Source of the DNA: an uncultured delta proteobacterium | GTDB taxonomy: Bacteria; Myxococcota_A; Polyangia; Fen-1088 | Reading direction: 5' to 3' | Length of the DNA: 64,000 nucleotides | NCBI GenBank assembly: GCA_963796685.1 | Contig: CAWCMR010000015.1 | Span: 256,001 to 320,000 of the forward strand | Shown here: piece by piece, positions 1 through 15,104 of the stretch | Layout of the letters: every line of letters begins with the position of its first letter | Position numbering within the stretch: position 1 is the stretch's first letter | Made by a program: the position numbers and the translations under genes | The notes under the pieces: model-generated | Database searches by the model: none | What the model was told of the DNA's origin: nothing | The model's input: only the letters and a program-made list of their open reading frames with translations

Positions 1-1
1 G

Positions 2-931
2 TTCGACACCAGCTTCAGCGCCGACCTCACCATCATGGAGGAGGCCTCCGAGTTGGTGCACCGGATCAAGACCGGCGGAAAGCTGCCGATGTTCACCAGT
101 TGTTCGCCAGGCTGGATCAAGTTCATGGAGACGTTCTACCCGGACATGCTCGGGCACTTGTCGACGTGCAAGAGCCCGCAGCAGATGCTGGGGGCCATCA
201 CCAAGAGCTACTTCGCTCAGCGCGAAGGCATCGATCCGACCAAGATCGTCAGCGTGTCCATCATGCCGTGCACGGCCAAGAAGTTCGAGGCGGGCCGGCC
301 CGAGATGACCCAGGCCTACAACCCCGATGTGGACTACGTCCTCACCACGCGCGAGGCGGCTCAGCTTCTGCGCATGAGCGGCGTGGGCATGACCGGCATC
401 GAACCGGAATCGGCCGACACGCCCTTCGGCGAGCGCTCGACGGCGGGCAAGATCTTCGGCGCCTCGGGTGGCGTGATGGAGGCGGCGGTTCGCACGGCGC
501 ACTGGATGATCACGGGCAAAGAGTTGCCCGGTCTCGACGTCCAGCCGCTGCGCGGGCTCGATGGCGCCAAGGAGCTGAAGGCCAACATCGGCGGCATCGA
601 GGTCGGCGCCGCGGTGGTCAGCGGTCTCGGCAACGCACGCGCCCTGGTCGAGCAGATCCGCGCGGGTCGCAAAGACCTTCACTTCATCGAGGTCATGACC
701 TGTCCCGGCGGCTGCATCAACGGCGGCGGTCAGCCGCTGCACTCCGACAAACAGGCGGTCCTCGCGCGCATGAAGAAGCTGTACAACCTGGACAAGGACG
801 CCACCTTGCGCGTCAGCCACGACAACAAGTCGGTCAAGCGCCTGTACGAGGAATTCCTGGGTGCGCCCCTCGGTGAAAAGAGCCACCATCTGCTGCACAC
901 GCATTACTCGGCGAGAGAGGTCTTGGTGTAA
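2..931 (+). CDS. hydA: [FeFe]-hydrogenase catalytic subunit, C-terminal H-domain (5' partial)
   Basis: Frame is open from base 2 (FDTSFSADLTIMEE). H-cluster motifs FTSCSPGW, MPCTAKKFE and EVMTCPGGCINGGGQP are present, with a small-subunit-like tail SHHLLHTHY. Confidence 0.95.
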   Translation, partial: FDTSFSADLTIMEEASELVHRIKTGGKLPMFTSCSPGWIKFMETFYPDMLGHLSTCKSPQQMLGAITKSYFAQREGIDPTKIVSVSIMPCTAKKFEAGRPEMTQAYNPDVDYVLTTREAAQLLRMSGVGMTGIEPESADTPFGERSTAGKIFGASGGVMEAAVRTAHWMITGKELPGLDVQPLRGLDGAKELKANIGGIEVGAAVVSGLGNARALVEQIRAGRKDLHFIEVMTCPGGCINGGGQPLHSDKQAVLARMKKLYNLDKDATLRVSHDNKSVKRLYEEFLGAPLGEKSHHLLHTHYSAREVLV

Positions 932-933
932 CC

Positions 934-1350
934 ATGAGCGAAACAAAGACGATCCTGATTGTTGACGACGACCTCGACATCCTCGAGCAATACACCCTGC
1001 TCCTCAAGGCGGACGGCCACACGGTCGTGCAAGCCAGCAGCCTGGCCGAGGCCGAGGAGACCATCCTGACGGTTCGCCCCGATCTGGCCATCTTGGACCT
1101 GATGATGGACGAAAAGGACGCGGGCTTCGTGCTGTGCAACCAGCTCAAGCGCTTGTATGCCAACCTGCCGGTCATCATCGTGTCCAACGTCACGCCCATC
1201 ACCGGGCTCGACTTCAGGCCGCGCAACCAGGAAGAGCACTCATGGGTGCGCGCGGATGCGATTCTGAACAAGCCCATCGTCGCCGAGCGTTTGCGCGGCG
1301 AAATTGCCCGGCTGCTCAATCAAGGGCAGGCCGCGGCTGCCGTACACTAG
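934..1350 (+). CDS. Single-domain response regulator (receiver only)
   Basis: ILIVDDD...PDLAILDLMM...LNKP receiver motifs; starts 2 nt after the hydA stop. Confidence 0.9.
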   Translation: MSETKTILIVDDDLDILEQYTLLLKADGHTVVQASSLAEAEETILTVRPDLAILDLMMDEKDAGFVLCNQLKRLYANLPVIIVSNVTPITGLDFRPRNQEEHSWVRADAILNKPIVAERLRGEIARLLNQGQAAAAVH

Positions 1351-1405
1351 GGCGTGGAGAAAGCACGGCGGGTGAAGTAACCGGCATGCAAAGATGGGAG
1401 CTTCC

Positions 1406-3451
1406 ATGACCATCGCGCAGCCGAAGTGCTTCACCAAGACCGTGAAAGATCGCTGCCACGTCTGCTACACCTGCGTACGCGGTTGCCCGGCCAAGGCCAT
1501 CCGGATCCTGGACCGCCAGGCCGAGATCGTCGCCGATCGCTGCATCGGCTGCGGCAACTGCGTGCGGGTGTGCGGGCGGGGCGCCAAGAAGGTCGTCAAC
1601 ACTGTTCCCGACGTCGAAACCCTGCTCGCCGGGGGCGGGCGTGTGGCGGCCCTGGTGGCCCCCAGCTTCGCGGCCGAGTTCTACGATGTGTGCGAGGCGC
1701 AGAATCCCCAGGTGCTGGTGGGGATGCTGCGCAAGCTCGGCTTCGATCTCGTGACGGAAGTGGCGTTCGGCGCCGACCTGGTCGCGCATGCCTACCGCAA
1801 GCTCCTCGATTCGCGTCCAGCCGGGACGCGCTACATCGCCACCACGTGCCCCGCGGTGGTCGGCTACGTCGAGCGCTACTGGCCCGAGCTGGTTGGCCAT
1901 TTGGCGCCGCTGGTGTCCCCCATGGTGGCCATGGCGCGCGTCCTGCGTGCCATGCATGGGCCGGATCTGCGCACGGTCTTCATCGGGCCTTGCCTGGCCA
2001 AGAAGGTCGAGGCCAGCATGCCCGAGCTCGCTGGCGAGGTGGACGCCGTGATCACCTTCGCCGAGTTGCGCACCATGTTCCTGTCCCATGCCGTGGAGGC
2101 GGCCTCGACGCCGGGAAGCGATTTCGATCCGCCTCACGCCGGGACCGGCACCTTGTTCCCGCTCAACCGCGGGCTGTTCCAGGCCGCCGGCATCAGCGAG
2201 GATTTGGCCAGCACCGAGGCCGTGGCGGCCCACGGCGGGCCAGGGTCGTTCGTGAACGCCATCGAGGAGTTCGCGGGTGGCGACGTCGACTTCGGCCTGG
2301 TCGAGGTGCTGTGCTGCAACGGCTGCGTGTCGGGGCCGGGCATGACCTCGCACGAGAAGACCTTCCGCCGCCGTGCCCGGGTGGCCAAGTACGCCAACGA
2401 GAGCAAACGCACGCGCGACGCGACCAAGTGGTACGACGAGATGGATCGATTTTCCACCGTCGACCTCGCGCGCAAGTTCATTCCCTTCGATCAGCGCACC
2501 GCCATGCCGTCCGAGGAGGAAATTCGCCACATCCTGCGCGGCATGGGCAAGGAGAGCGAGGCCGACGAGCTCGACTGCAAGGCGTGCGGGTATTCGACCT
2601 GCCGCGAGCACGCCATCGCGATCTATCGCGGACTGGCCGAAACGCAGATGTGCCTGCCTTACGTCATCGATCGCTTCGACCACACCGTACGCCAGCTCTC
2701 CGAATCGAACCGACAGCTCGAAACCACGCAAGAGCAGCTCATGCACTCGGAGCGCCTGGCCAGCATGGGGCAGCTCGCCGCCGGCGTGGCCCACGAGCTC
2801 AACAATCCGCTCGGCGTGGTGTTGCTCTACGCGCACCTCTTGCGTGACGAGGCGAGCGAGGACTCGGGCATGCGCAAGGAGCTGACCTTGATCAGCGATC
2901 AGGCCACGCGGTGCAAGCGCATCGTGTCGGATCTGCTCGACTTCGCGCGCGAGAACAAGCTGCTGCTCGAACAGATCAGCGTCGAAGAGCTGATCAAGCG
3001 CAGTCTGGCCGGCCTGCCGTTGCCGCAGGAGATCAACATCGTCCTCGAGCTGGGCCACGTCCACCCCGAGTGCGAGGTCGATCCCGCGCAGATGATCCAG
3101 GTGCTGACCAACCTCTACAGCAATGCCTTTGCCGCCATGCCGAACGGCGGTACTCTGACCATCGCCACGCACGAGGAGGGCGAGCGCCTGATCATCAGCG
3201 TGCACGATACGGGCACGGGCATTCCGGCCGAGAACATGAAGCACATCTTCCAGCCCTTCTTCACCACCAAGCAAATCGGCAAGGGCACGGGGCTTGGCCT
3301 GGCGGTGGTATACGGAATCGTGAAAATGCACCGGGGCGACATCGTGCTCGAATCCAATGCCGATGCGGCGCGCGGTCCCACCTGGACCCGTTTCAAGGTG
3401 TCGATTCCGCACAATCAGGTCATGCAGGGCGCCGAGACGAGGATTGGCTGA
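1406..3451 (+). CDS. Sensory-type [FeFe]-hydrogenase (HydS-like, group C) fused to a histidine kinase
   Basis: N-terminal 2x[4Fe-4S] motifs (CHVCYTCVRGCP, CIGCGNCVRVC), H-domain motifs ATTCPAVV, GPCLAKKVE and EVLCCNGCVSGPG, FeS domain DCKACGYSTC...MCLPY, H-box AHELNNPL, and HATPase motifs DTGTGI and GKGTGLGL. GGAG precedes ATG 1406; ATG 1394 is an alternative start. Confidence 0.9.
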   Translation: MTIAQPKCFTKTVKDRCHVCYTCVRGCPAKAIRILDRQAEIVADRCIGCGNCVRVCGRGAKKVVNTVPDVETLLAGGGRVAALVAPSFAAEFYDVCEAQNPQVLVGMLRKLGFDLVTEVAFGADLVAHAYRKLLDSRPAGTRYIATTCPAVVGYVERYWPELVGHLAPLVSPMVAMARVLRAMHGPDLRTVFIGPCLAKKVEASMPELAGEVDAVITFAELRTMFLSHAVEAASTPGSDFDPPHAGTGTLFPLNRGLFQAAGISEDLASTEAVAAHGGPGSFVNAIEEFAGGDVDFGLVEVLCCNGCVSGPGMTSHEKTFRRRARVAKYANESKRTRDATKWYDEMDRFSTVDLARKFIPFDQRTAMPSEEEIRHILRGMGKESEADELDCKACGYSTCREHAIAIYRGLAETQMCLPYVIDRFDHTVRQLSESNRQLETTQEQLMHSERLASMGQLAAGVAHELNNPLGVVLLYAHLLRDEASEDSGMRKELTLISDQATRCKRIVSDLLDFARENKLLLEQISVEELIKRSLAGLPLPQEINIVLELGHVHPECEVDPAQMIQVLTNLYSNAFAAMPNGGTLTIATHEEGERLIISVHDTGTGIPAENMKHIFQPFFTTKQIGKGTGLGLAVVYGIVKMHRGDIVLESNADAARGPTWTRFKVSIPHNQVMQGAETRIG

Positions 3452-4614
3452 TGGGAGAGCGACTACGGGTTCTGGTTGTCGATGACGAAGAGGGTATTCG
3501 TCTCGGCGTGGCTAGGGTTCTCGAACGCTTCGTCGCCAGCTTTCCCGACATCGCGGCCGAGATCAGCTACGACATCGAGTCCGCAGCAAGCGGCGAGGAC
3601 GCGGTGGAACGCCTGCGCGATTCGCCGCCCGACATCCTGCTGCTCGATCTGAAATTGCCGGGCATCGGCGGCCTCGACGTCCTGCGCGAGGCGCGCAATC
3701 TGGAGCCACCCGTCCTGACCATCATGATCACGGCCTACGCCTCGGTGACCACCGCGGTCGAGGCGACGCGCGGCGGGACTTTCGATTTTCTGCCCAAGCC
3801 GTTCACGCCGAACGAAATCAAGGCTTGCGTCCGCCGCGCCACACGCGACCTGGTCTTGAGTCGGCAGGCGAAAAAATTGGCGGCCGAGCAGCGACGCACG
3901 CGCTTCGAGCTCATCCGGGTCCTGGTGCACGAGCTGAAGGCGCCGCTCGGCGCCGTCGAGGGCTATTTGGCCTCGATTCTGGATGGCGTGGTCAACGACG
4001 AGGAGACGCGTCGCCATGTGGTGACCCGATCCATCGCGCGCATCCAGGGCATGCGCCAGCTCATCCTCGACCTGCTCGACGTGACCCGCCTGGAGGCCGG
4101 GATGAAGGCGCGCGATTTCTCGACCGTGTCGCTGACCGACCTGGCGCGCGAGTGCGTGGATGCCCTGCGCCCGCAGGCCGAGGCCAAGCATCTGACCTTG
4201 GAGATCGTCGGTGCCCCCGATCTCGAGCTGGTCGCCGTGCGCGCCGAGCTGGAAATCGTGCTCAACAACCTGCTGACCAACGCCATCAAATACAACCGCG
4301 AGGGCGGCAGCGTGCGCGTGTCGCTGGGGCGGCACGAGGATGTCTTCGTGATCGCCGTGCACGACACCGGCTTCGGGCTTTCGCGCGACGACGCTGCCAA
4401 GCTGTTCAACGACTTCGTGCGCATCAAGAACGTGAAGACCCGCGGCATCGAGGGCTCGGGCCTCGGCCTGGCGACCGTCAAGCGCATCGCGGGCCTGTAC
4501 CACGGCGACGCCACGGTAGACTCGCAGCTCGACCAAGGAAGCACTTTCACCGTCACCCTCAAGGCAGCTGTGCCCGCAAAGGCACTGCTGCCGGAAAAGC
4601 AAGCGCAAGCATGA
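3451..4614 (+). CDS. Hybrid sensor: N-terminal receiver plus histidine kinase
   Basis: ATG overlaps the upstream TGA. Receiver motifs VLVVDDE, LLDLKLPG and FLPKPF; H-box VHELKAPL; NAIKY, DTGFG and GSGLGL boxes. Confidence 0.9.
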   Translation: MGERLRVLVVDDEEGIRLGVARVLERFVASFPDIAAEISYDIESAASGEDAVERLRDSPPDILLLDLKLPGIGGLDVLREARNLEPPVLTIMITAYASVTTAVEATRGGTFDFLPKPFTPNEIKACVRRATRDLVLSRQAKKLAAEQRRTRFELIRVLVHELKAPLGAVEGYLASILDGVVNDEETRRHVVTRSIARIQGMRQLILDLLDVTRLEAGMKARDFSTVSLTDLARECVDALRPQAEAKHLTLEIVGAPDLELVAVRAELEIVLNNLLTNAIKYNREGGSVRVSLGRHEDVFVIAVHDTGFGLSRDDAAKLFNDFVRIKNVKTRGIEGSGLGLATVKRIAGLYHGDATVDSQLDQGSTFTVTLKAAVPAKALLPEKQAQA

Positions 4615-4874
4615 AAGATCACCGCATCGTAGGTGTCCACATCACCGACCGCGCCACCCACGCCGGCGAGGTCCAAACCATCCTGAGCAAATATGGCAAG
4701 AACATCCGCACCCGGCTCGGCCTGCACGAGGTCAGCGAGGACTCGGCAGCGCCGAATGGCCTCATCATCCTGGAAGCCGTGGGAACCAACCAGGAAATCG
4801 ACGCCCTCTCCGACGAGCTGCGCCACCTCAAAGGCGTGCAAGTGCAGAGCATGTTTTTTTCACATCCTGAGTAG
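4611..4874 (+). CDS. Iron-only hydrogenase system regulator-like small protein (TM1266 family, ACT-like)
   Basis: 87 aa, MKDHRIVGVHITDR...VQTILSKYGKNIRTRLGLHEV; ATGA overlap with the upstream gene; lies before hydG. Confidence 0.75.
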   Translation: MKDHRIVGVHITDRATHAGEVQTILSKYGKNIRTRLGLHEVSEDSAAPNGLIILEAVGTNQEIDALSDELRHLKGVQVQSMFFSHPE

Positions 4875-4877
4875 ATT

Positions 4878-4981
4878 TTTCACCACAGAGGGCACAGAGA
4901 GCGCGGAGGTCGGAATGGAAGAATTTCGGATTCAAGAGCCGAAAGCCTCCTACTCTCGGCCTCGGTGCCTTTGCGGTGAAA
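4878..4981. repeat. REP-like imperfect inverted-repeat element 1 (CACAGAG type)
   Basis: Left arm TTTCACCACAGAGGGCACAGAG pairs imperfectly with right arm CTCGGTGCCTTTGCGGTGAAA. Confidence 0.65.
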
Positions 4982-5063
4982 TTCACGAGAACATTCGCCT
5001 AGAGCACCATGGGATTGCCTGGCGCTGCCGGGCCGCCGTGCAGAACGCATACAAGCCATTTTT

Positions 5064-5169
5064 TAACCACAGAGAACACAGAGGTCCGGAGAGTGAAGGG
5101 TTTTCCGGATCTCGATCCGAACCCTTCATTCCTCATCCGTCTCCGTGTTCTCTGTGTCCTCTGTGGTTA
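5064..5169. repeat. REP-like long hairpin element 2 (CACAGAG type)
   Basis: TAACCACAGAGAACACAGAG...CTCTGTGTCCTCTGTGGTTA outer stem with nested stems TGAAGGGTT/AACCCTTCA and CGGATC/GATCCG. Confidence 0.8.
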
Positions 5170-5307
5170 GAATCCGGAAATTGCCCGGGTTTCAACCCGT
5201 TCGGTGCTCTAGTGTCCCTGCCTTGCGAGGAACTCCAGGTCCTCGCGGTAAACCTGGCAGGGCAATGCAGTCTGCGCTAGTCTATCGAGGAAAGAAAGGA
5301 TTTTTCG

Positions 5308-6732
5308 ATGTTGCCCCTATCCAAAACGCTGAGCCAGCATGCCGAGGATTTTATCGACGACGCCCATTTGGAAAGGCTGGCCGGCGCCGCGGATCTGGTC
5401 GATGTGGGGCGCCTGCGCGGCGTCATCGCCAAGGCGCTCGACAAGCAGGCTTTGACCGTCGAGGAAACCGCGGTCCTTCTGCACGCCCGCGATCCGGAGC
5501 TGCGCGAGGAAGTGTTCGCGGCGGCGCGCGATCTCAAACAGCGCGTGTACGGCAACCGCATCGTCCTCTTCGCGCCGCTCTACCTCGGCAATCTGTGCGT
5601 GAACAACTGCGCCTACTGCGGCTTTCAGAGCAACAACAAGGACATGGTCCGACGTACGCTGGGCATGGAGGAGATCCGCCAGCAGGTGGTGGCCATGGAA
5701 AATCAGGGCCACAAGCGCCTCATCGTGGTGTTCGGCGAGCACCCGCGCTACGACGCCGACTTCATCGCCAGTTGCATCCGCGATATCTACGACGTGACGA
5801 GCGGGCACGGCGAGATCCGGCGCGCCAACGTGAACGCGGCCCCGTTCGACCACGCGGGTTTCAAGACCATCAAGGCCGCCGGCATCGGCACGTATCAGAT
5901 CTTCATGGAGACGTACCATCACAAGACCTACGCGCGCGTCCATCCCCACGGCACGCCGAAGGGCGACTACCTGTGGCGGCTCGATGCCCTGAGCCGCGCT
6001 TTCGAGGTGGGGCAGGACGACCTCGGCATCGGCGCGCTCTTCGGTCTGGCGAATTGGCGCTTCGATGTGCTCGGCCTGGTCAGCCATGCGGTCTTCCTGA
6101 AAGAGCGCTACGGCTGCGGGCCGCACACCATCAGCTTTCCGCGTTTGCGGCCCGCCTCTGGCGTGGATCTGGGGAACGAGAACCTGGTCGGCGACGAGGA
6201 CTTCAAATTCCTGATCGCGGTGCTGCGCCTGGCTGTGCCTTACACCGGGCTCATCCTCACCGCGCGCGAGACCGCCGATCTGCGCAAGAGCGCCATGGAA
6301 TTCGGCGTGTCCCAGATCGACGCCGGCTCGTGCGTCGAGCTGGGGGGCTACACCGAACAGACCTGCGGTCAGCGCATGGAGCGCGAGCAGTTCACGCTCG
6401 GCGACATGCGCCCGCTCGATACCGTCATTCGCGAGCTCACCGAGCAGGGGCACGTGCCCAGCTTCTGCACCGCCTGCTACCGCCTGGGCCGCACCGGCGA
6501 GCACTTCATGGAGTTCGCCATCCCCGGCTTCATCAAGCGCTTCTGCACGCCCAATGCCCTGACCACGTTCATGGAATACCTCGTCGACTACGCGACGCCG
6601 GAAACCGCCAAGTCCGGCTTGGCGCAGATTCAGGTCGAGCTCGACAAGCTGGAGGACTCGCCCATGAAGCAAACGTTGATCGAGCGGTTGGCCAAGGTGC
6701 GGGAGACCAACGAGCGGGACATGGTCTTCTAA
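5308..6732 (+). CDS. hydG: [FeFe]-hydrogenase H-cluster radical SAM maturase HydG
   Basis: FAPLYLGNLCVNNCAYC (CxxxCxxC), GPHTISFPR, and a C-terminal CxxCx22C motif (CTAC...RFC). Confidence 0.95.
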   Translation: MLPLSKTLSQHAEDFIDDAHLERLAGAADLVDVGRLRGVIAKALDKQALTVEETAVLLHARDPELREEVFAAARDLKQRVYGNRIVLFAPLYLGNLCVNNCAYCGFQSNNKDMVRRTLGMEEIRQQVVAMENQGHKRLIVVFGEHPRYDADFIASCIRDIYDVTSGHGEIRRANVNAAPFDHAGFKTIKAAGIGTYQIFMETYHHKTYARVHPHGTPKGDYLWRLDALSRAFEVGQDDLGIGALFGLANWRFDVLGLVSHAVFLKERYGCGPHTISFPRLRPASGVDLGNENLVGDEDFKFLIAVLRLAVPYTGLILTARETADLRKSAMEFGVSQIDAGSCVELGGYTEQTCGQRMEREQFTLGDMRPLDTVIRELTEQGHVPSFCTACYRLGRTGEHFMEFAIPGFIKRFCTPNALTTFMEYLVDYATPETAKSGLAQIQVELDKLEDSPMKQTLIERLAKVRETNERDMVF

Positions 6733-6733
6733 G

Positions 6734-7891
6734 TCACAGCAGTTTGTCGTTCCACAGCTCGTCGAGGAATGTTCGCCAGGGGAGGCAACGGATGGAGCCT
6801 TGCTTGGTTTCGATGGGATCTTCGGAAACGAGAAAGAACTGGCGCAAGATTTTCTCTTCGGCGAGCGCGGTCAGCCCGCGGAGGTCGGAGGCTCCAACAT
6901 GCCGGGTGGCCTTGGTTTCGACAGCGAGGTGATCGCCGACGACGAAGTCGACCTCGTGGTCGGCGGTGGAGCGCCAATAGCGGAGCTCTTCATGACGGCG
7001 TCGGTAGCCGAGATAGGCCCGTAGCTCCATGGCGATCCATTGCTCGAAGCTGCGGCCGTAGAGGTCGGAATTGCGGTCGAGAGTGCGCGTTCCGCTGAGC
7101 GCGTGCGCGACGCCGGTGTCGAAGAAGTAGAACTTGGCGGTAGCAATGGCTTTCCGCTTCTTCGACTTGGTCCAGGCGGGAAGCAGAAACCCCACCAGGG
7201 TGTCTTCCAGGAGGAAATAGTGCTCGCGCACCGTGGCCGCGGGCAGACCGGCATCGTTGCCGATCTTGGCGAAGTTCAGCATCTGGCCGTTGGTCGAGGC
7301 CGCCGTGGTCAGGAATCGGGTGAAGGCCGGAAGACGGCGTACCAGGCCTTCTGCCTGGATCTCCTCGTGCAAGTAGGTTCGCACGTAGGCGTGCAACTCC
7401 TCCTCGGGCTCATCGCTCAGCACGACCGGAGGGAGGCCTCCATAGCGAAGAAATCTCGGCAGGTCGAACTTGGGGATCTCCGCGTAGGTCAAGGGATAGA
7501 GGTTCGCCGTCCAGGCGCGTCCACCAAGGAGGTTGGCGTGGCCGTGCCTGAGCTTGCGGGCGCTGCTCCCCGTGAGAACGAAGCGCATGCCACGCTCCTC
7601 GATCAACCGGTGGACTTCGTCGAGAATGTGCGGAATCTTCTGAACCTCGTCGATCACGATGGGCGCGGTCGCTGCCCGGCGGTCCGCATCGATCATCGCT
7701 TCAAGGAGGTTGGGGCTGGCGGAGAGCCGGAGAAAGAGATCGGAACGTAGGAGGTCGATGACGACCGCCTGGCCGCCGAGCTGTTGGCGGACGAGGAAGC
7801 TCTTCCCCGTCATGCGCGGTCCGAGGAGGAAGAAGGACTTCTTCTTGACCAGCGCGGCGAGATCCAGGGCCCGTCTGATGTTGGATATCAT
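6734..7891 (-). CDS. AAA_14 / DUF4143 ATP-binding protein
   Basis: Walker A GPRMTGKS, IDEVQK, LTGSSARKL, KFYFFDTG, and C-terminal EVDFVV...VETK (nuclease-like motif). Confidence 0.85.
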   Translation of the reverse strand: MISNIRRALDLAALVKKKSFFLLGPRMTGKSFLVRQQLGGQAVVIDLLRSDLFLRLSASPNLLEAMIDADRRAATAPIVIDEVQKIPHILDEVHRLIEERGMRFVLTGSSARKLRHGHANLLGGRAWTANLYPLTYAEIPKFDLPRFLRYGGLPPVVLSDEPEEELHAYVRTYLHEEIQAEGLVRRLPAFTRFLTTAASTNGQMLNFAKIGNDAGLPAATVREHYFLLEDTLVGFLLPAWTKSKKRKAIATAKFYFFDTGVAHALSGTRTLDRNSDLYGRSFEQWIAMELRAYLGYRRRHEELRYWRSTADHEVDFVVGDHLAVETKATRHVGASDLRGLTALAEEKILRQFFLVSEDPIETKQGSIRCLPWRTFLDELWNDKLL

Positions 7892-8017
7892 AGTTAATGA
7901 TTATGATGATAAACAGCGATAGCCACAATGGCTATATGGACGTTCGAGGTCCATCCGGAACGCGCCGGTTGCACCAGGTGGACGTCGCCGCGAAATCGGC
8001 TAAGGTCTTCGTGGACC

Positions 8018-8980
8018 ATGCGGAAGACAAGACGCTACGCCATCCTGGGCACGGGCGCGCTGGGGGGATTTTACGGCGCGCGACTTGCCCGCGCCGGAGC
8101 CGATGTGTGCTTCCTGCTGCGCGGCGATTTCGAGCACGTGCGCACGCACGGCTTAGTGATTGACTCGAAGGACGGCGACTTCACGTTGCCCTCGGTGCAG
8201 GCGTATCGCAATGTCCGCGAGATGCCCCCCTGCGATGTCGCCGTCGTGGCGCTCAAGGCCACGCAGAATCACTTGCTGCCCTCGCTGTTGCCGCCCGTGC
8301 TGGCCGACGATGGCGTGGTGTTGTTGATGCAGAACGGGCTGGGCGGCGAGAAGGAGGCGGCACGGGCGGCGCCCGGGCACGCGGTGCTGGCGGGGCTGTG
8401 CTTCTTGTGCTCGAACAAGGTCGGGCCGGGCCACATCCGCCATCTCGACTACGGCACCGTGCGCTTCGCCGCCTACTCGACCAGCGGGGAAACCGCCGAG
8501 ACCGCCGAGGTGAGGGAGCGCATGCAGGGGATCGCCAAGGATTTCGCCGATGCCGGCCTCCAAGTCGACATCAAGGACGACCTCCTGCTGGCGCGCTGGC
8601 AGAAGCTGGTGTGGAACGTGCCCATGAGCGGTCTTTCGGTGGTGCTGGACGCGAATACGCAGGCGCTGATGGCAGACCCGCATACGCGAGCCCTGGCCGA
8701 GGACATCATGCGCGAGGTGGTGGCGGGGGCGCGGGCCTGCGGCCGGGCCATCCACGATAGCTTCGTGCGGAAGATGCTCGACATGACCCTGGCCATGCCA
8801 CCCTATCGGGCCAGCATGAAGATCGATTTCGACGAGGGTAAACCCATGGAGGTCGAAGCCATCTACGGCAATCCTCTGCGCGCTGCCCGTCAGGCCGGGG
8901 CCGCTCTTCCGCTCATCGAAACGCTCTACCGGCAGCTCAAGTTCCTCGATGCGCGGACGACGAAACCCAAGCCGGGGTAG
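8018..8980 (+). CDS. panE: 2-dehydropantoate 2-reductase (ApbA/PanE family)
   Basis: GTGALGGFYG, ALKA, QNGLG, WQKLVWN and SMKID...PMEVEAI motifs; start chosen at ATG 8018. Confidence 0.85.
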   Translation: MRKTRRYAILGTGALGGFYGARLARAGADVCFLLRGDFEHVRTHGLVIDSKDGDFTLPSVQAYRNVREMPPCDVAVVALKATQNHLLPSLLPPVLADDGVVLLMQNGLGGEKEAARAAPGHAVLAGLCFLCSNKVGPGHIRHLDYGTVRFAAYSTSGETAETAEVRERMQGIAKDFADAGLQVDIKDDLLLARWQKLVWNVPMSGLSVVLDANTQALMADPHTRALAEDIMREVVAGARACGRAIHDSFVRKMLDMTLAMPPYRASMKIDFDEGKPMEVEAIYGNPLRAARQAGAALPLIETLYRQLKFLDARTTKPKPG

Positions 8981-9016
8981 TCGCGGAGCGAAGGCGCGCG
9001 TGCTAGAGCCTAGGCA

Positions 9017-9991
9017 ATGAGCTCCCCGTCGATCCTTCGTATCGAGCAGGATGCGGTGGCCTTCTTTCTCGACTTGCAAGACAAGATGGTCGCCGGATTG
9101 CAGGCGCTCGATGGCCGCCCTTTTCGCGAGGACGCTTGGCAGCGGCCGGGCGGCGGGGGAGGGCGGTCGCGCGTGCTTGCGGACGGTGGCTTGTTCGAGA
9201 AGGCGGGGGTGAATTTCTCGGACGTGCACGGCAGCATGCGACCGGAGCTGGCGCGCAGCTTGCCGGGTGACGGCGCCGAGTTTCGCGCCACCGGGATCTC
9301 GCTGGTGTTGCATCCGTGCAGCCCGCGCGTGCCCACGGTGCACGCCAATCTGCGCTTCATCAGACGGGGAAGCGCGGCCTGGTTCGGCGGCGGTACGGAT
9401 CTCACGCCCTACTACGTGGTGGCCGAGGACGCGCGGCTGTTTCATCGCAGTCTCGAGGCGATCTGCGCTCGCCACGAGCCCGGCCTGTACCCGCGTTTCA
9501 AGGGCTGGTGCGATCGGTATTTCTTTCTTCCCCACCGCAATGAGCCGCGCGGGGTCGGAGGCATCTTCTTCGACTATCTCGGCGCGGGCGCGGAGGCTGC
9601 CGCCGGCGAACCGCTGCCGCCCTCGACCACCGGGCTCGAAACCGATGTGGCGAAGGTGTTCGCCTTCGTGCGCGACCTCGGGGAGCACATGCTGGATGCA
9701 TACACCACCATTGTCGGGCGCCGCCGCGAGGAGACCTGGGGCGAGCGCGAGCGAGAATGGCAGCTGCTCCGGCGCGGGCGCTACGTCGAATTCAACCTGG
9801 TCTACGACCGGGGAACCCTGTTCGGCCTGCGCACCGACGGCCGCACCGAATCGATTCTGATGTCGTTGCCCCCCGAGGTGAAATGGCGATACGGCGCCGT
9901 TCCCGAGGCCGGCTCTCCCGAAGCGCGTTCGCTGGAGGCCATCTGTGCGCGGCGCGACTGGGCGCGGGAAGAACGGGAAGAAGTCGAATAG
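9017..9991 (+). CDS. hemF: Oxygen-dependent coproporphyrinogen III oxidase
   Basis: [32 protein letters not shown] and [20 protein letters not shown]...ESILMSLPP. Confidence 0.95.
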
Positions 9992-10037
9992 TTGCACGCT
10001 CGACTTGACGGGCGGCCATTCTCGTCGCACCCTAGAG

Positions 10038-10109
10038 ATGCTCATGCGGTCGATTGCTCAGCTTCTCGCTCTCTCGGTGCTGCTCCTTAGCGGCGCGAGA
10101 GAGGTCTGA
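10038..10109 (+). CDS. leuL: Leucine-rich attenuator leader peptide MLMRSIAQLLALSVLLLSGAREV
   Basis: 23 codons with 7 Leu including an LLL run, about 110 nt upstream of leuA and followed by a terminator hairpin. Confidence 0.8.
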   Translation: MLMRSIAQLLALSVLLLSGAREV

Positions 10110-10170
10110 GCGCGATCGCTTCCACCAAACCCTCTCTCGCGGAAATCCCGGAGAGGGTTTTGGTGTATTT
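10095..10170 (+). promoter_or_regulatory. leu attenuator: antiterminator and terminator hairpins
   Basis: GCGAGAGAGG (10095-10104) is perfectly complementary to CCTCTCTCGC (10131-10140), which competes with terminator stem AAACCCTCTC...GAGAGGGTTT followed by a T-rich tail. Confidence 0.8.
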
Positions 10171-10217
10171 GGACCCAAGGCTGTCTCCGGCAAACCCAAA
10201 GCAAAAGGAGACGCCCG

Positions 10218-11876
10218 ATGTTCGATGCACGGAAATATCGCCCCAATTCGGTACCCACGCTCTCGCAAAGGACCTGGCCGGAGCGCACGCTCGCGCGTCC
10301 GCCCATCTGGTGCAGCGTGGATCTGCGCGATGGCAACCAAGCCCTGGTCGAGCCCATGGGGCAGGAGCGCAAGCTGCGCATGTTCGAGAAGCTGGTAGCG
10401 GTTGGCTTCACGGAGATCGAGGTCGGCTTTCCCGCTGCTTCCCAGACCGACTTCGATTTCGTCCGCTTGCTCATCGATGAACGGCGCATTCCGAGCCACG
10501 TCACCATCCAGGTGCTGACCCAGGCGCGCGAAGGCCTGATTCGACGTACCCTGGAATCGCTGCGGGGCACCCGGCGGGCCATCGTCCATCTCTACAATTC
10601 GACCAACCCGGTGCAACGCAAGGTCGTGTTCGGCATGAGCCGCGAGCAAGTGCGCGCTCTGGCCGTGCAAGGGACGAAATGGGTTCAAACCCTGGCCGCC
10701 GCCATGCCTGAAACCGAGATCGTGCTCGAGTACTCGCCCGAGAGCTTCAGCATGACCGAGCTGGATTTCGCCGTCGAGGTGGTGGACGCTGTCGTGGACG
10801 CCTGGGATCCGAGCCCGCTGCGCAAGATGATCGTCAATCTGCCCTCGACGGTCGAGTCCTCGACGCCCAACGTGTACGCCGACCAGATCGAGTGGATGGG
10901 CACGCACGTCGCGCGACGGAAGGATGTGGTGCTGAGCGTGCACACGCACAACGATCGCGGCTGCGCGGTGGCGGCCGCCGAATTGGCCATGCTGGCCGGC
11001 GCGGAGCGCGTGGAGGGAACGCTGTTCGGGAACGGCGAGCGCACCGGCAATGCCGATGTCGTCACCTTGGCGATGAATCTGTACGCGCAGGGCGTGGCGC
11101 CGGGGCTGGATTTCTCGGACCTGCCGTCGCTGGTCGAAACCTTCCAGGTCTGCAACCAGATGCCGGTGCCGGCCCGCCACCCCTACGCGGGCGAGCTGGT
11201 GTTCACCGCCTTTTCGGGCTCGCACCAGGACGCCATCGCCAAGGGGCTGGCGACGCGCGCCCGCGAAGGTGCGACCATCTGGGAGGTGCCGTACCTGCCC
11301 GTGGATCCCTCGGATGTAGGACGGGCCTACGAGCCACTCATCCGCATCAACAGCCAGTCGGGCAAGAGCGGCGTGAGCTACGTCGTGGAGCAGGGCTACG
11401 GCTACCGCGTACCCAAGGAACTGGCCGTCGAGCTGAGCCGAGTCGTGCAAGAGGCAGCCGACGCAAGCGGCAAGGAGCTGGCGCCCGATGTGATCTTCGC
11501 CATCTTCGAGCGTACCTACCTCGACGCGACCGGGCGGCTGGTCCTGCTCGACTACGAGGTTCAGCACCCGGCTCCCGACCGCTGCCACCTGGCCGCCAAG
11601 ATCCGCGACGGCGAAGCCACCGTGGTCGCGACCGGCGAGGGCAAGGGCGCCATCGAAGCCTTCGTGCACGCGCTCGAGACGGTGCGCAAGATGCCATTGC
11701 AAGTCGCCGATTACAGCGAGCATGCGCTCGGTGCGGGCAGCGACGCGGAGGCCGTGGCCTACGTAAAGGTGGCCGCGCCCGGGCGAGCACCAGCCTGGGG
11801 CGCCGGCCGCGATCGCGACATCGTGACCGCCTCGCTGCGTGCCGTGGTGCGGGCTGTGAATCGACTCGGGCTGTGA
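10218..11876 (+). CDS. leuA: 2-isopropylmalate synthase (yeast/actinobacterial-type)
   Basis: WCSVDLRDGNQAL, EIEVGFP, HTHNDRG, EGTLFGNGERTGN and IRINSQSGKSGV. Confidence 0.95.
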   Translation: MFDARKYRPNSVPTLSQRTWPERTLARPPIWCSVDLRDGNQALVEPMGQERKLRMFEKLVAVGFTEIEVGFPAASQTDFDFVRLLIDERRIPSHVTIQVLTQAREGLIRRTLESLRGTRRAIVHLYNSTNPVQRKVVFGMSREQVRALAVQGTKWVQTLAAAMPETEIVLEYSPESFSMTELDFAVEVVDAVVDAWDPSPLRKMIVNLPSTVESSTPNVYADQIEWMGTHVARRKDVVLSVHTHNDRGCAVAAAELAMLAGAERVEGTLFGNGERTGNADVVTLAMNLYAQGVAPGLDFSDLPSLVETFQVCNQMPVPARHPYAGELVFTAFSGSHQDAIAKGLATRAREGATIWEVPYLPVDPSDVGRAYEPLIRINSQSGKSGVSYVVEQGYGYRVPKELAVELSRVVQEAADASGKELAPDVIFAIFERTYLDATGRLVLLDYEVQHPAPDRCHLAAKIRDGEATVVATGEGKGAIEAFVHALETVRKMPLQVADYSEHALGAGSDAEAVAYVKVAAPGRAPAWGAGRDRDIVTASLRAVVRAVNRLGL

Positions 11877-11917
11877 ATCGACTCGGGCTGTGAATCGACT
11901 CGGGCTGTGAATCGACT
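11850..11917. repeat. 17-bp tandem repeat, 4 exact copies, spanning the leuA stop codon
   Basis: CGGGCTGTGAATCGACT at 11850, 11867, 11884 and 11901. Confidence 0.95.
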
Positions 11918-12075
11918 GTGTCAACCGAACGCGGCGTGCGTGTCGGGGACCTGCCGCGGCGTAGGAAGTCGATTCCTTCCAATCGATGAGCCGGTGTTTG
12001 GCCTTCGTGAGCACTACCACGTGCTCGCGATGCACTTCAGCGCCACGGCCGAGCAACAACAGGAAGGGAAAGTTC

Positions 12076-13715
12076 ATGAAAACCTCGCCATACCTACCGC
12101 TGGCAGCCATTTTGATGGTGGCTTGCTCAAATTCGACTGGAAGTCCGCAGCCCGGGACCGGCGGAAATGGTGCCGGTGGATTCGAGCTCCACCGGCGGTG
12201 CATCGTCTGGCGGGGTGATTGGCGCGGGTGGAAAGTCTGGTAGTGGCGGGGATTCGCAGCCAGGCGGCGTGTCCGGCTCGGGTGGCAGGGTGGAGACCGG
12301 CGGGGCTCAAGGTGGAGGAGGCGCCAACCCAGGTACGGGCGGTTCGGGTACCGGCGGAGCGTCCAAGAGCGGTTCGGGGGGCTCGGGTGCTGGCGGCGTG
12401 TCAACCTCGGGTGCGGGTGGTTCGGGTGCAGGCGGTGCGTCCAACCCGGGTTCGGGCGGTGGCAAGACCGACGGCGGGTCCAACCCGGGCTCGGGCGGTG
12501 CCAATACCGACGGCGGGTCGAATCCCGGTTCGGGCGGCACAGGCACCGGCGGTGGGTCCAACCCGGCTTCGGGTGGAGTAGGAGGCGGCTCCAATCCCGC
12601 CGAGAACAGCGGTGCCTCCTGCAATGCGACTTCCGCCGCCCTCCTGTCGGCAGACTATGCCAAGCTACCCAATCCATTCACCATGCACGATGGAACCGCC
12701 ATCACCACCAAGGCGCAATGGGAATGCAGAAGGAACGAGATCCTTCAGGATATATACAAGTACGAAATCGGTCCCAAACCGGATCCGTCGGAGACAACTG
12801 TTGCGGCCACGCTTTCCGGCTCCAACCTGAGCGTCAAAGTGACATCGAGCTCGGGCTCCCTCACGATCAAGTCGGCGGTCTCTGGCAGTGGCAGTTGTGT
12901 GGTTATCGCTACGGATATGGACCTGGGCATCATAACCGGCTGCACCAAGCTCACATTCTCGACCAACGACGTGATCCCCTACAACAATGGCAGCGGCTCG
13001 CAAAGCCAATCCGATCCCTTCTACAAAGTGTTTCCGTCATTGTGGGGAAAGATCGGAAACTACACCGCCTGGTCCTGGGGTGTCAGTCGCATGATCGACG
13101 GTCTTGATCAGGTGAAAGATCAGCTCAAGATCGACATGACCAAGATCGCCACGCACGGCTGCTCGTACGCTGGAAAGATGTCCCTGTTTGCCGGGGCGCT
13201 CGATGAGCGCGTCGCGTTGGTCGTCGTGGAGGAATCAGGTGGTGGCGGCATCGACGCCTGGAGAGCGTCGGCGGACTTCACCAAGCGCACGGGCGTGAGC
13301 GTCGAAAAGATCGACAACACCAACTATGCTTGGTTCATGTCCAGCATGAAGAGCCTGGACCCCTACAAGCTGCCCCACGATCATCACGAGCTGCATTGCG
13401 GCGATTGCTCCCCGAGCCACCATCATCTTGGGAAACCCCGGCTATCAATGGTTGGGTGACGAATCCGGATACAAATCGACCATGGCCGCCGTGGAGGTTT
13501 TCAAAGCTCTGGGGGTCGCAGACAATATTGGCTACGATTTTACCGGCGGCCACGCCCACTGCTCGGCCCCCACGAGTCAAGTGAACAGTATCAATGCATT
13601 TGCCGACAAGTTCCTCAAGGGAAAGAGCACCAGCACCAGCGTGGCCATCAAGCCCTCCGATAGCTCATTCCAGTTGACCGCCGACTTCGACTGGACGACC
13701 CCGACTCTACAATAG
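12076..13715 (+). pseudogene. CE15 glucuronoyl-esterase-like lipoprotein with Gly-rich linker; two apparent +1 frameshifts (about 12181 and 13394), possibly sequencing errors
   Basis: Signal MKTSPYLPLAAILMVAC. LPNPF...QWECRRNEI, AWSWGVSRMIDGL, nucleophile motif GCSYAGK and EESGGGG. DHHEL/IAAIAPR is restored by removing one C. Confidence 0.8.
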
Positions 13716-13763
13716 GGTTCAGTCACTGAAAATCGCGAGAAACCCGAGACCGCTGGTCTCTCG

Positions 13764-15104
13764 ATGGCACGCAGACACCTCCTTCTCGCTGCTTTCGTTT
13801 TGGTCACGTCACCCGGCTGCGAGGGAGGTGCGTCCTCGGAGTACGGGAGCTGCCTTGAGCTCGCCGTGAGCAAGAACGAGGTGAGCTCCCGGATCCCAAC
13901 GGTCGGCGTGATCGAATGGTCCATGGCGGGGGGCAGCCCCTCGAGCTCCAAGATTGTCTACAAGCTGAAGAACGCTGCCAGCTCGATTTTGAACCAAGGT
14001 GGTGAGGCTCCGGTCAACCTCGGCAACCCCAACTATCGAACCCTGCTCCTCGGTCTCAAGCAATCCGAGGACTATTCGTTTCATATCGAAGCTGTCCGCA
14101 AGGGACGGACCTGCGTCAGCCCCGACTATGACCTCCCCACCACGGGCAGCTTCGCGACTTCGCCGTCCGTCACCATGGATGTGGCTCAAGCCGGCAAGCG
14201 AGAGCCTGGGTTCATCGTGACCAGCTCGGGAACCTTCGAGCCGAGCAGCGCCTTCATCATCGACGCCGATGGAGACGTTGTTTGGTACGTCGAAGCCCCC
14301 CTGAATCCCACGCGTGCGCAGATGGACTACGAGGGCGATACGATGTGGATGGTGGCCCTCAACCTGGACAATGGAGATGGGGAGGTGCGCTCCGTATCGA
14401 TGGACGGGGAGCAGGAGCAGAGGAATGTTCCAGGCCTCGAGCACGCGCACCATGACCTCACCGTGATGCCCGGGGGCAAGGTCGCCGTCCTCGTTTGGCG
14501 CGCTCCGGGCATCGATCCCGAGAGCGACCTCGTGGTTCGCTCGCCGGACGGCACGGTCAACACTCCCTTCACCATCGGGAGCAACCTCTACCTGTCGGAC
14601 ACGTTTCACGCCAACGCGATCCACTACGTCCCATTCGACGACAGCTTCACGATTGCGGATCGGAATCCGAACGTGTTCGTGAAAGTGAGCGCGGGTGGAA
14701 CCCCCGTGTGGCAACTTGGCGGCGTGTGCGACCAGGCGCCCACGGGCAACCAATGCGTCCCCCGGGATTGGCAGATCGTTCACGGTCACCACCTGCTCGA
14801 CGACGGGACGTTCCTGGCCTTCAACAATGACTACTTGGAGTCGTCGCATGTCTTCGAGCTCAAGCTGAGCGTCAGCCCCGGCGCGTTCGCCGCCACGTTG
14901 GTCAAGAACTACACCGGCAATCATTCGAGTAGCACCATGGGCGACGTGCAGCGCCTGCCGGGCGGCAACACCCTCGTTACCTATGCTACGGATGGAAAGA
15001 TTATCGAGCTCGATTCGAGCTGGAACGAAGTGCAGACGTTCTCGGCGCACATCGGCTACTCAAACTGGAGGCCGACGCTCTACGGCCCCCCGATCCGTAT
15101 GTGA
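13764..15104 (+). CDS. Arylsulfotransferase (ASST)-like beta-propeller exported protein
   Basis: Signal with Cys (VTSPGC); IIDADGDVVWY, HHDL, FHANAI and MGDVQRLPGGNTLVTY. Confidence 0.65.
   Translation: MARRHLLLAAFVLVTSPGCEGGASSEYGSCLELAVSKNEVSSRIPTVGVIEWSMAGGSPSSSKIVYKLKNAASSILNQGGEAPVNLGNPNYRTLLLGLKQSEDYSFHIEAVRKGRTCVSPDYDLPTTGSFATSPSVTMDVAQAGKREPGFIVTSSGTFEPSSAFIIDADGDVVWYVEAPLNPTRAQMDYEGDTMWMVALNLDNGDGEVRSVSMDGEQEQRNVPGLEHAHHDLTVMPGGKVAVLVWRAPGIDPESDLVVRSPDGTVNTPFTIGSNLYLSDTFHANAIHYVPFDDSFTIADRNPNVFVKVSAGGTPVWQLGGVCDQAPTGNQCVPRDWQIVHGHHLLDDGTFLAFNNDYLESSHVFELKLSVSPGAFAATLVKNYTGNHSSSTMGDVQRLPGGNTLVTYATDGKIIELDSSWNEVQTFSAHIGYSNWRPTLYGPPIRM

Follow-up and report, generated by a model that had tools for sequence, protein, structure and literature searches.

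We analyzed a gene encoding a histidine kinase that is fused to a sensory-type [FeFe]-hydrogenase module, together with the operon around it. The gene lies near the 5' end of a stretch of DNA of 64,000 nucleotides (the window) from an uncultured delta proteobacterium of the GTDB lineage Myxococcota_A. The source is a metagenome-assembled genome of 7.3 Mb in 26 contigs (88.6% complete, 6.5% contamination), and the window corresponds to C15:256001-320000. Genes for the hydrogenase subunit HydA, a lone REC domain, the sensor kinase, a REC-HisKA-HATPase kinase (REC-kinase), a TM1266-like small protein, and the maturase HydG follow one another on the + strand (Table 1). The sensor and REC-kinase genes overlap at TGATG (3449-3453), and the genes of the REC-kinase and the TM1266-like protein at ATGA (4611-4614). 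A first-pass annotation made from the sequence alone had described this tightly packed run, and both its gene order and its overlaps were confirmed.

Table 1. Features at the 5' end of the window
Feature	Position	Strand	Evidence or remarks
hydA, 3' part (last 309 codons), group A [FeFe]-hydrogenase catalytic subunit	2-931	+	Pfam Fe_hyd_lg_C 3.5e-78, Fe_hyd_SSU 1.1e-23
Lone REC, 138 amino acids	934-1350	+	Pfam Response_reg 7.7e-15; begins 2 bases past the hydA stop
Sensor kinase, 685 amino acids from 1394, more likely 681 from ATG 1406	1394-3451	+	HydS-type sensory [FeFe]-hydrogenase module and HisKA/HATPase transmitter
Sensor: N-terminal 2x[4Fe-4S] ferredoxin-like domain	1445-1585	+	Pfam Fer4 family models within residues 18-64
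Sensor: H-domain, residues 84-315	1643-2338	+	Pfam Fe_hyd_lg_C 3e-45
Sensor: C-terminal Cx2Cx4Cx16C motif, presumed fourth [4Fe-4S] site	2570-2659	+	Pfam PF04060 residues 393-422, 1e-07
Sensor: predicted signaling helix, residues 421-446	2654-2731	+	AlphaFold2; begins right after C420, heads to DHp
Sensor: transmitter, HisKA/DHp and HATPase	2765-3412	+	Pfam HisKA residues 458-520, 8.3e-16; HATPase_c 563-673, 2.2e-22
REC-HisKA-HATPase kinase, 387 amino acids	3451-4614	+	Pfam Response_reg 1.5e-21, HisKA 3.4e-09, HATPase_c 7.6e-24
TM1266-like / CPF_0552 family small protein, 87 amino acids	4611-4874	+	Pfam PF21699 7e-08, score 32.8 against a cut-off of 27
Dispersed inverted-repeat copies, REP/MITE-like	4876-5172		Direct and inverted repeats inside the 433-base gap 5' of hydG
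hydG, H-cluster radical SAM maturase, 474 amino acids	5308-6732	+	NCBIfam TIGR03955 476.7 bits against a cut-off of 312

Sensor kinase and its predicted H-cluster site

For the start of the sensor, ATG 1406 is a better choice than 1394, because GGGAG lies 5 bases 5' of it and because a length of 681 amino acids recurs in 16 of the 40 closest homologues among the matches listed; the first-pass annotation had also used this start. Residue conservation was assessed in 82 aligned sensors, 80 from public species genomes and the two of the source genome. All eight cysteines of the N-terminal iron-sulfur domain (C21, C24, C27, C31, C50, C53, C56, and C60) occur in every one of these sensors, as do C395, C398, and C420 of the C-terminal motif, the remaining C403 being present in 81. 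The transmitter has the residues of the H, N, G1, and G2 boxes by which a HisKA-type kinase is recognized, and the sensor appears on this basis to be such a kinase; H467, N573, N577, D605-x-G607-x-G609, and G631-x-G633-x-G635 are kept in all 82 sequences. The Pfam scores of its domains lie above the model cut-offs. In NCBIfam, it scores highest with AtoS (196.7 bits) and ZraS (178.7 bits), and its top PDB match is the cytoplasmic domain of ZraS.

No PAS domain was detected in the sensor in a Pfam scan at E <= 0.01. The C-terminal iron-sulfur motif and HisKA are separated by just 35 residues, and a PAS domain could therefore not fit between them. The domain order proposed in the first-pass annotation, which lacked a PAS domain, is borne out by both the Pfam classification and this spacing.

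An AlphaFold2 model of the sensor, built from a 15-sequence alignment, has a mean predicted local distance difference test score (pLDDT) of 74.5. In blocks of 10 residues, the score lies between 73 and 97 over residues 11-390, except for a value of ~50 at residues 251-260. In Foldseek, the front half of the model matches [FeFe]-hydrogenases (probability 1.00, target template modeling score <=0.68) and the back half matches the ZraS cytoplasmic domain. The helices of the DHp domain are predicted at residues 454-486 and 492-522. The helix predicted to connect the C-terminal motif to DHp (residues 421-446) has a pLDDT of <50 in the monomer model and is to be taken as a prediction only.

The four positions of the H-cluster ligands, namely C152 in motif L1, C200 in L2, and C308 and C311 in L3, are invariant in all 82 sensors, and the same is true of P153, S175, P176, M177, G198, P199, K203, E206, and G310. 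A89-P90-S91 is invariant in 15 of 15 sensors. K203, E206, S175-P176, and A89-P90-S91 correspond to residues in contact with the CN ligands of the hydrogenase CpI. The hallmarks of catalytic group A enzymes, which are a cysteine in the proton relay and methionines at the positions of M353 and M497, are replaced in the sensor by T151, G198, and L306, respectively. A direct comparison with the HydA of the window gives ATTCP against TSCSP in L1, GPCLAKKVE against MPCTAKKFE in L2, and EVLCCNGC against EVMTCPGGC in L3. The ligand cysteines and sensory substitutions listed in the first-pass annotation are all present (T150-T151-C152-P153, G198-P199-C200-x-A-K203-K204, and L306).

Across the family, the proton-relay position is occupied by T in 43 sensors, S in 24, N in seven, A in six, and P in two. 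The M353 position is Gly in all 82, not the Ser or Thr by which group D enzymes are recognized, and L306 is kept at the M497 position in 81. Loss of the relay cysteine and a Gly at the M353 position are described for sensory enzymes, for example as A131 and G177 in TmHydS (PMC10055695); here and below, statements on cited sources refer to the parts of each that were available to us.

The kinase-fused sensors differ from the catalytic and PAS-type enzymes examined in the L3 loop. All 82 have CxGC, in which two residues separate the two cysteines. Three intervening residues (CxxGC) are found in all 70 neighboring HydA open reading frames with a readable L3 motif. The same holds for 30 of 30 HydS proteins of the PAS type, which have CxGGC in L3 along with S-[ST]-A-C-P in L1. 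This PAS-type set consists of a protein from locus L043 and 29 relatives, for which 201 genomes of the phylum of the L043 organism were searched and 69 had a match. The kinase-fused family thus has one residue fewer between two H-cluster cysteines than the catalytic and PAS-type enzymes, and its relay position is usually a hydroxyl residue instead of the Ala of PAS-type enzymes. The text of the publications on kinase-domain relatives, as distinct from their figures and supplements, makes no mention of the CxGC signature in the parts available.

The window sensor and the PAS-type HydS of L043 are collinear and 38% identical over residues 16-424 (E 8e-73). Their similarity stops just past the fourth cysteine of the C-terminal motif, after which a PAS domain follows in one and the kinase in the other. 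L043 is a Lentisphaerae locus at which the PAS-type HydS (626 amino acids, 5826-7703, - strand) and a kinase-fused sensor (8863-11007, + strand) flank rex. The Cx2Cx4Cx16C motif is a common mark of the group C and group D sensory enzymes (PMC8163306, which also defines group C). The sensor has the 2x[4Fe-4S] domain and the Cx2Cx4Cx16C motif that flank the H-domain in group C (HydS, M2f) and is related to PAS-type members, with a transmitter in place of their PAS domain. Within the group C HydS enzymes, it probably belongs to a kinase-fused branch.

Operon, gene order, and distribution

The hydA gene is truncated by the window edge. In full (L007:11210-12931), it starts 790 bases 5' of the window and encodes 573 amino acids, with Fer2_4, NADH-G_4Fe-4S_3, and Fer4 domains; its top PDB matches are HydA2 of the hydrogen-dependent CO2 reductase (HDCR) and HydA1 chains of bifurcating hydrogenases. 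Further upstream, the operon begins with rex (Put_DNA-bind_N and CoA_binding), followed by hydC, which encodes a 2Fe-2S thioredoxin-like protein, and then by a gene of 1095 codons (L007:7894-11181) that encodes HydB joined to a GltD-like NAD(P)H oxidoreductase (Fer4_20 and Pyr_redox_2). Adjacent genes of this series overlap at their start and stop codons or come close to doing so, and the genes rex-hydC-hydB(gltD)-hydA and those of the relay are likely to be co-transcribed, as judged solely from this spacing. No terminator-like sites were found on the + strand in 1-7000. We had considered the L1 motif of the neighboring HydA, TSCSPGW instead of TSCCPGW, as an oddity, but dropped this because TSCSP occurs in 64 of 66 neighboring HydA open reading frames with a readable L1, as well as in the solved chain 7q4v_A.

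Of 8000 candidates scored in a protein-level search for relatives of the sensor, 7136 were hits at E <= 0.001. PF02906, PF00512, and PF02518 occur together in 119 of 120 homologues among the matches listed, which are 54-93% identical to the window sensor. In contigs representing one genome per species, relatives are encoded in at least 590 of at least 599 candidate stretches. The kinase-fused sensor is common, including in Myxococcota metagenome-assembled genomes, and the rarity assumed in the first-pass annotation, with such a relay least of all expected in Myxococcota, was overstated.

Gene order was compared in the best 80 of at least 590 loci by BLASTP of stop-to-stop open reading frames against the window proteins, with counts given for loci that have enough flanking sequence. 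These loci carry 15 phylum labels, and the order of genes is conserved among them; a lack of such conservation, which the first-pass annotation had named as grounds for refutation, was thus not observed. The hydA gene is directly upstream of the sensor in 59 of 65 loci, and in 67 of 71 loci a REC-kinase gene follows the sensor <=1.8 kb downstream. The sensor has an adjacent lone REC in 49 of 66 loci (upstream in 14, downstream in 36, and on both sides in one). Rex is encoded <=7 kb upstream in 38 of 53 loci, a HydG or HydE-like protein <=6 kb downstream in 27 of 57, and the TM1266-like protein in six of 57 as identified by BLAST.

Where the lone REC lies correlates with the type of HydB. At loci with a HydB-GltD fusion, the lone REC is upstream in 12, downstream in one, and absent in two; at loci without the fusion, these numbers are zero, 26, and seven, respectively. 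A quick tree of the 82 sensors places the window sensor in a 12-member clade that has a Shimodaira-Hasegawa-like approximate likelihood ratio test (SH-aLRT) value of 100, alongside sequences of Myxococcota, Holophagaceae, and Fibrobacterota, and 10 members of this clade are of the GltD type. The hydB-gltD type is not a single clade, as it requires eight changes on the tree, at least three of which are forced by starred branches.

At the 3' end of the run, the TM1266-like protein passes the NCBIfam model CPF_0552_fam (93 bits, cut-off 85) and is below the cut-off for TIGR03959 (38.2 bits, cut-off 60.8). The gap between its gene and hydG holds copies of a repeat with the 18-base core ACCACAGAGrrCACAGAG, which has 90 copies in the genome as compared to none for a reversed control. 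The core often occurs as inverted pairs ~90 bases apart, and the element looks like a repetitive extragenic palindrome (REP) or a miniature inverted-repeat transposable element (MITE). The corresponding gap between the two genes in L011, a close relative, measures ~100 bases. A few kb from the hydrogenase operon, at 9017-9991 of the window, is a gene for a coproporphyrinogen III oxidase of the oxygen-dependent type (Pfam PF01218, 7.4e-115). Its presence near an operon for an O2-sensitive hydrogenase hints at a facultative lifestyle.

Proposed relay partners and a second module

The lone REC has the residues of a response-regulator receiver (D11-D13, D55, S84, and K113), as does the REC-kinase (D11, D12, D66, T94, and K116), which also has H160 in its kinase part. 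The receiver residues are at the top level of conservation, with the commonest residue in >=90% of sequences, among 73 homologues of the lone REC and 74 of the REC-kinase; the 73 are those that adjoin a sensor, out of 82 loci. Both REC domains would, by these residues, be functional receivers.

Family relationships suggest how the proteins may be connected. The lone REC of the window is closest to the DVU0259/DivK-like and PhoB families in NCBIfam, with PleD also appearing among matches of lone RECs. The receiver of the REC-kinase, taken alone, is best matched by AtoC (81.7 bits) and NtrC (72.6 bits), and its kinase core by PnpS and PhoR. The most likely wiring would have the AtoS/ZraS-like sensor phosphorylate the NtrC-type receiver of the REC-kinase, from which the PhoR-like kinase of the same protein would pass the signal to the DivK/PhoB-like lone REC. 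Helix 1, which was compared with the aim of picking the partner of the sensor, is conserved in both receivers alike, and the DHp domain of the sensor is nearly invariant across the family.

The first-pass annotation had noted that the cluster contains no DNA-binding output regulator. This is correct with respect to response regulators, and it does not extend to Rex, which is encoded at the head of the operon and is not a response regulator. Clustering of all unassigned open reading frames of the 80 loci likewise revealed no DNA-binding response regulator as a conserved neighbor; it yielded only HydC, HydF (22 loci), and an aspartase-like lyase (13 loci). At four Rex-less loci of the Planctomycete type (L049, L052, L067, and L087), Pfam identifies a divergent sigma-54 activator of the NtrC type 5' of the hydrogenase operon. 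The activator of L049 is paired with a Cache-HAMP kinase, and the same kinase is present at L063.

The source genome has a second module, on contig C3 (66001-86000, locus L008). At ~4630-14097 of this locus are rex, a REC gene, hydC, hydB, hydA, a sensor kinase, a lone REC, and a REC-PAS-kinase. The paralogous sensor is 674 amino acids in length, is 43% identical to the window sensor, and keeps the CxGC loop. The receiver of the REC-PAS-kinase changes frame at ~12640-12800, which means that the gene is either broken or wrongly assembled. Two sites resemble a Rex operator: one at 4710-4727, which has one mismatch and falls within the rex reading frame as called from GTG, close to its 5' end, and another at 5464-5481 with three mismatches, before the first REC. 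The genome encodes a third HydA of 1006 amino acids and has an intact hydF at C15:162508-163680 (535 bits).

Interpretation and relation to known systems

We consider it likely, on balance, that the gene at 1394/1406-3451 encodes a soluble, presumably dimeric histidine kinase with a sensor-type [FeFe]-hydrogenase as its input, and that the protein serves an H2-sensing relay. It is in any case probably a sensor of hydrogen or of redox state. In the mechanism that we propose, HydE, HydF, and HydG would mature an H-cluster in the H-domain, at which H2 would bind and be oxidized slowly, the fast proton relay of catalytic enzymes being absent. The ensuing redox or conformational change would travel through the C-terminal four-cysteine domain, in which C420 stands at the start of the predicted helix into DHp, and would alter autophosphorylation at H467. 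The phosphoryl group would then enter a relay composed of the REC-kinase (D66 and H160) and the lone REC (D55), and the latter would exert its effect through protein contact. Overall, this would provide feedback to the presumably co-transcribed rex-hydC-hydB(gltD)-hydA operon and perhaps to maturation. H-cluster binding, the response to H2, the direction of phosphotransfer, and the output are what we infer here from sequence.

Several observations weigh against this proposal. The short L3 loop leaves fewer residues between the cysteines than in the enzymes compared above; we know of no characterized enzyme with CxGC spacing, and the H-cluster geometry at this loop is therefore putative. The sole good hydE candidate of the genome is split between two frames (C5:309031-310024, 233.8 and 78.8 bits) by a frameshift or an assembly error. 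The presence of two frame breaks in a metagenome-assembled genome, here and in the REC-PAS-kinase of the second module, may point to assembly errors. The wiring is drawn from family likeness only, a lone REC is not adjacent to the sensor in 17 of 66 loci, and locus L032 has a sensor and a lone REC with no REC-kinase. No Rex operator (N4 spacing) was found at the window locus at <=3 mismatches, and matches to sigma-54 promoters were no commoner than in shuffled sequence, with none 5' of the operons. A 2026 study of TamHydS reports that its C-terminal cluster is not reduced by H2 (PMC13104023), which makes it less likely that a simple redox relay runs by way of this cluster. Finally, our literature searches found no biochemical study of any kinase-fused member.

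Other functions can be envisioned for the sensor. It might read the reductant pool instead of H2, receiving electrons from ferredoxin or HydABC through its N-terminal 2x[4Fe-4S] domain, with the H-cluster site serving as a vent or being irrelevant; its kinase would then report cellular redox poise. The invariance of the eight N-terminal cysteines would agree with this, as would the apparent co-transcription, judged from gene spacing, of the module with both the NADH sensor Rex and a hydrogenase linked to NAD(P)H and ferredoxin. Any H2 sensor requires an electron sink, moreover, which makes the two signals hard to separate. However, the H-cluster cysteines, K203, E206, and S175-P176 are as strictly kept as the ferredoxin cysteines and would be needless in a plain iron-sulfur redox sensor, and in nearly half of the loci counted the relay has hydG or hydE-like genes downstream of it. 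We regard a reductant sensor as unlikely, while still giving it real weight. The maturase genes linked to the module, along with the retention of K203, E206, S175-P176, and A89-P90-S91, also speak against a Nar1-like protein whose H-domain holds a [4Fe-4S] cluster and never the 2Fe subcluster. This possibility would account for a CxGC loop that is unseen in the catalytic and PAS-type enzymes examined, and standard H-cluster motifs are described as hard to find in some kinase-domain group C1 proteins (PMC11406978); even so, we judge it highly improbable.

The sensor might instead detect O2 or other oxidants, with damage to the H-cluster or an iron-sulfur cluster switching the kinase such that the hydrogenase is made only under anoxia, in a manner similar to NreB or FNR. 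H-clusters are O2-sensitive, and the 7.3 Mb genome and the coproporphyrinogen oxidase of the window indicate that the organism may meet oxygen. However, a simple iron-sulfur domain would suffice for this purpose, and the module also occurs in Fermentibacterota, Caldisericota, and Hydrogenedentota, which we take to be strict anaerobes; in our estimation, O2 sensing is very unlikely. We place equally little confidence in the idea that the sensor is part of the hydrogenase complex as a bound subunit, whose kinase reads HydABC by contact or which adds catalysis at a low rate, instead of sensing free H2 on its own. A source for it is the treatment of BfuT as the T subunit of BfuABC clusters (PMC11406978), and it would fit with both the location of the gene directly after hydA in most loci and the measurable turnover that TmHydS and TamHydS retain. 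An adjacent hydA is missing in six of 65 loci, for example L043 and L082, and the conservation of the REC and REC-kinase partners favors signaling over catalysis.

The H2-sensing relay that we favor may also be extended to a complete cascade of four proteins without a transcription factor, in which the signal would pass from the sensor to the NtrC-type receiver, on to the PhoR-like kinase, and finally to the DivK-like lone REC, which would contact, for example, Rex, the hydrogenase, or the maturases. In that case, the CxGC loop would be what adapts a catalytic site to work as a switch linked to the helix of the kinase. This extended version is speculative and, taken as a whole, rather improbable.

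The two putative sensory [FeFe]-hydrogenases that have been characterized have no enzymatic output domain, and the 2026 study speaks against the favored signaling route, by way of the C-terminal cluster. A kinase-fused version offers a direct biochemical readout, namely autophosphorylation and phosphotransfer under H2 as compared to N2, and could settle whether such proteins sense H2. The window contributes two diverged modules in one genome, a set of conserved candidate partners, and a signature of CxGC and a hydroxyl residue that separates kinase-fused from PAS-type sensors. It further adds the link between the position of the lone REC and the type of HydB, as well as a proposed wiring, and its value lies in the experimental handle it gives on HydS signaling.

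Kinase-fused proteins of this type have previously been described from genome surveys and are not known to have been studied biochemically, as the first-pass annotation had supposed, and the window sensor is a real additional member. HydDB lists a group C1, 'histidine kinase-linked (putative)', and a group C3, 'phosphatase-linked (putative)' (PMC5037454); the kinase-domain relatives have been called C3 (PMC11406978, PMC9324843). Group C enzymes with a kinase domain have been noted next to group A3 hydrogenases in Hydrogenedentota, as 'BfuT' of the sub-type V BfuABC with Caldithrix abyssi as reference (PMC11406978), and, as a C3 enzyme, in Ca. Lernaella stagnicola (PMC9324843). In lineage V Elusimicrobia, such an enzyme has both group A3 and Rex nearby (bioRxiv 10.1101/765248). 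Caldithrix abyssi and Ignavibacterium album are listed in the Elusimicrobia and Hydrogenedentota papers as carriers of related enzymes. The available parts of these papers, their supplements aside, do not mention the lone REC, the REC-kinase, or the hydB-gltD variant. The BfuT type is defined by an H-domain and a kinase in one polypeptide and by a location next to a group A hydA, and both features are found in the window sensor. Similarly, at five Hydrogenedentota loci (L024, L033, L036, L044, and L074), the sensors are 53-56% identical to it and the gene order is the same.

Among sensory enzymes that have been characterized, TmHydS of Thermotoga maritima (group C, M2f) resembles the window sensor in that it has a 2x[4Fe-4S] domain, a Gly at the M353 position, and a Cx2Cx4Cx16C motif and lacks a relay cysteine. 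However, the C-terminal part of TmHydS is a PAS domain, whereas that of the window protein consists of HisKA and HATPase. TmHydS has Ser at the M497 position and Ala at the relay position, where the window sensor has Leu and Thr, respectively. TamHydS of Thermoanaerobacter mathranii (group D, M2e) shares with the window sensor the absence of a PAS domain, the Leu at the M497 position, a C-terminal [4Fe-4S] motif, and signaling genes nearby. Unlike the window sensor, it has no fused transmitter, a histidine-kinase-like ATPase being encoded by a separate neighboring gene, and as a group D enzyme it belongs to a class with Ser or Thr instead of Gly at the M353 position.

A more distant parallel is provided by the [NiFe] system HoxBC-HoxJ-HoxA (HydDB group 2b, 'histidine kinase-linked'; PMC5037454), which has the same logic of a slow hydrogenase that informs a histidine kinase of H2, with the kinase in control of hydrogenase genes. 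Its metal site and fold are unrelated to those of the window sensor. In addition, the sensor and kinase of the HoxBC-HoxJ-HoxA system are separate proteins and its output is a known DNA-binding regulator, whereas in the window the putative H2-sensing module and the kinase are joined in a single polypeptide.

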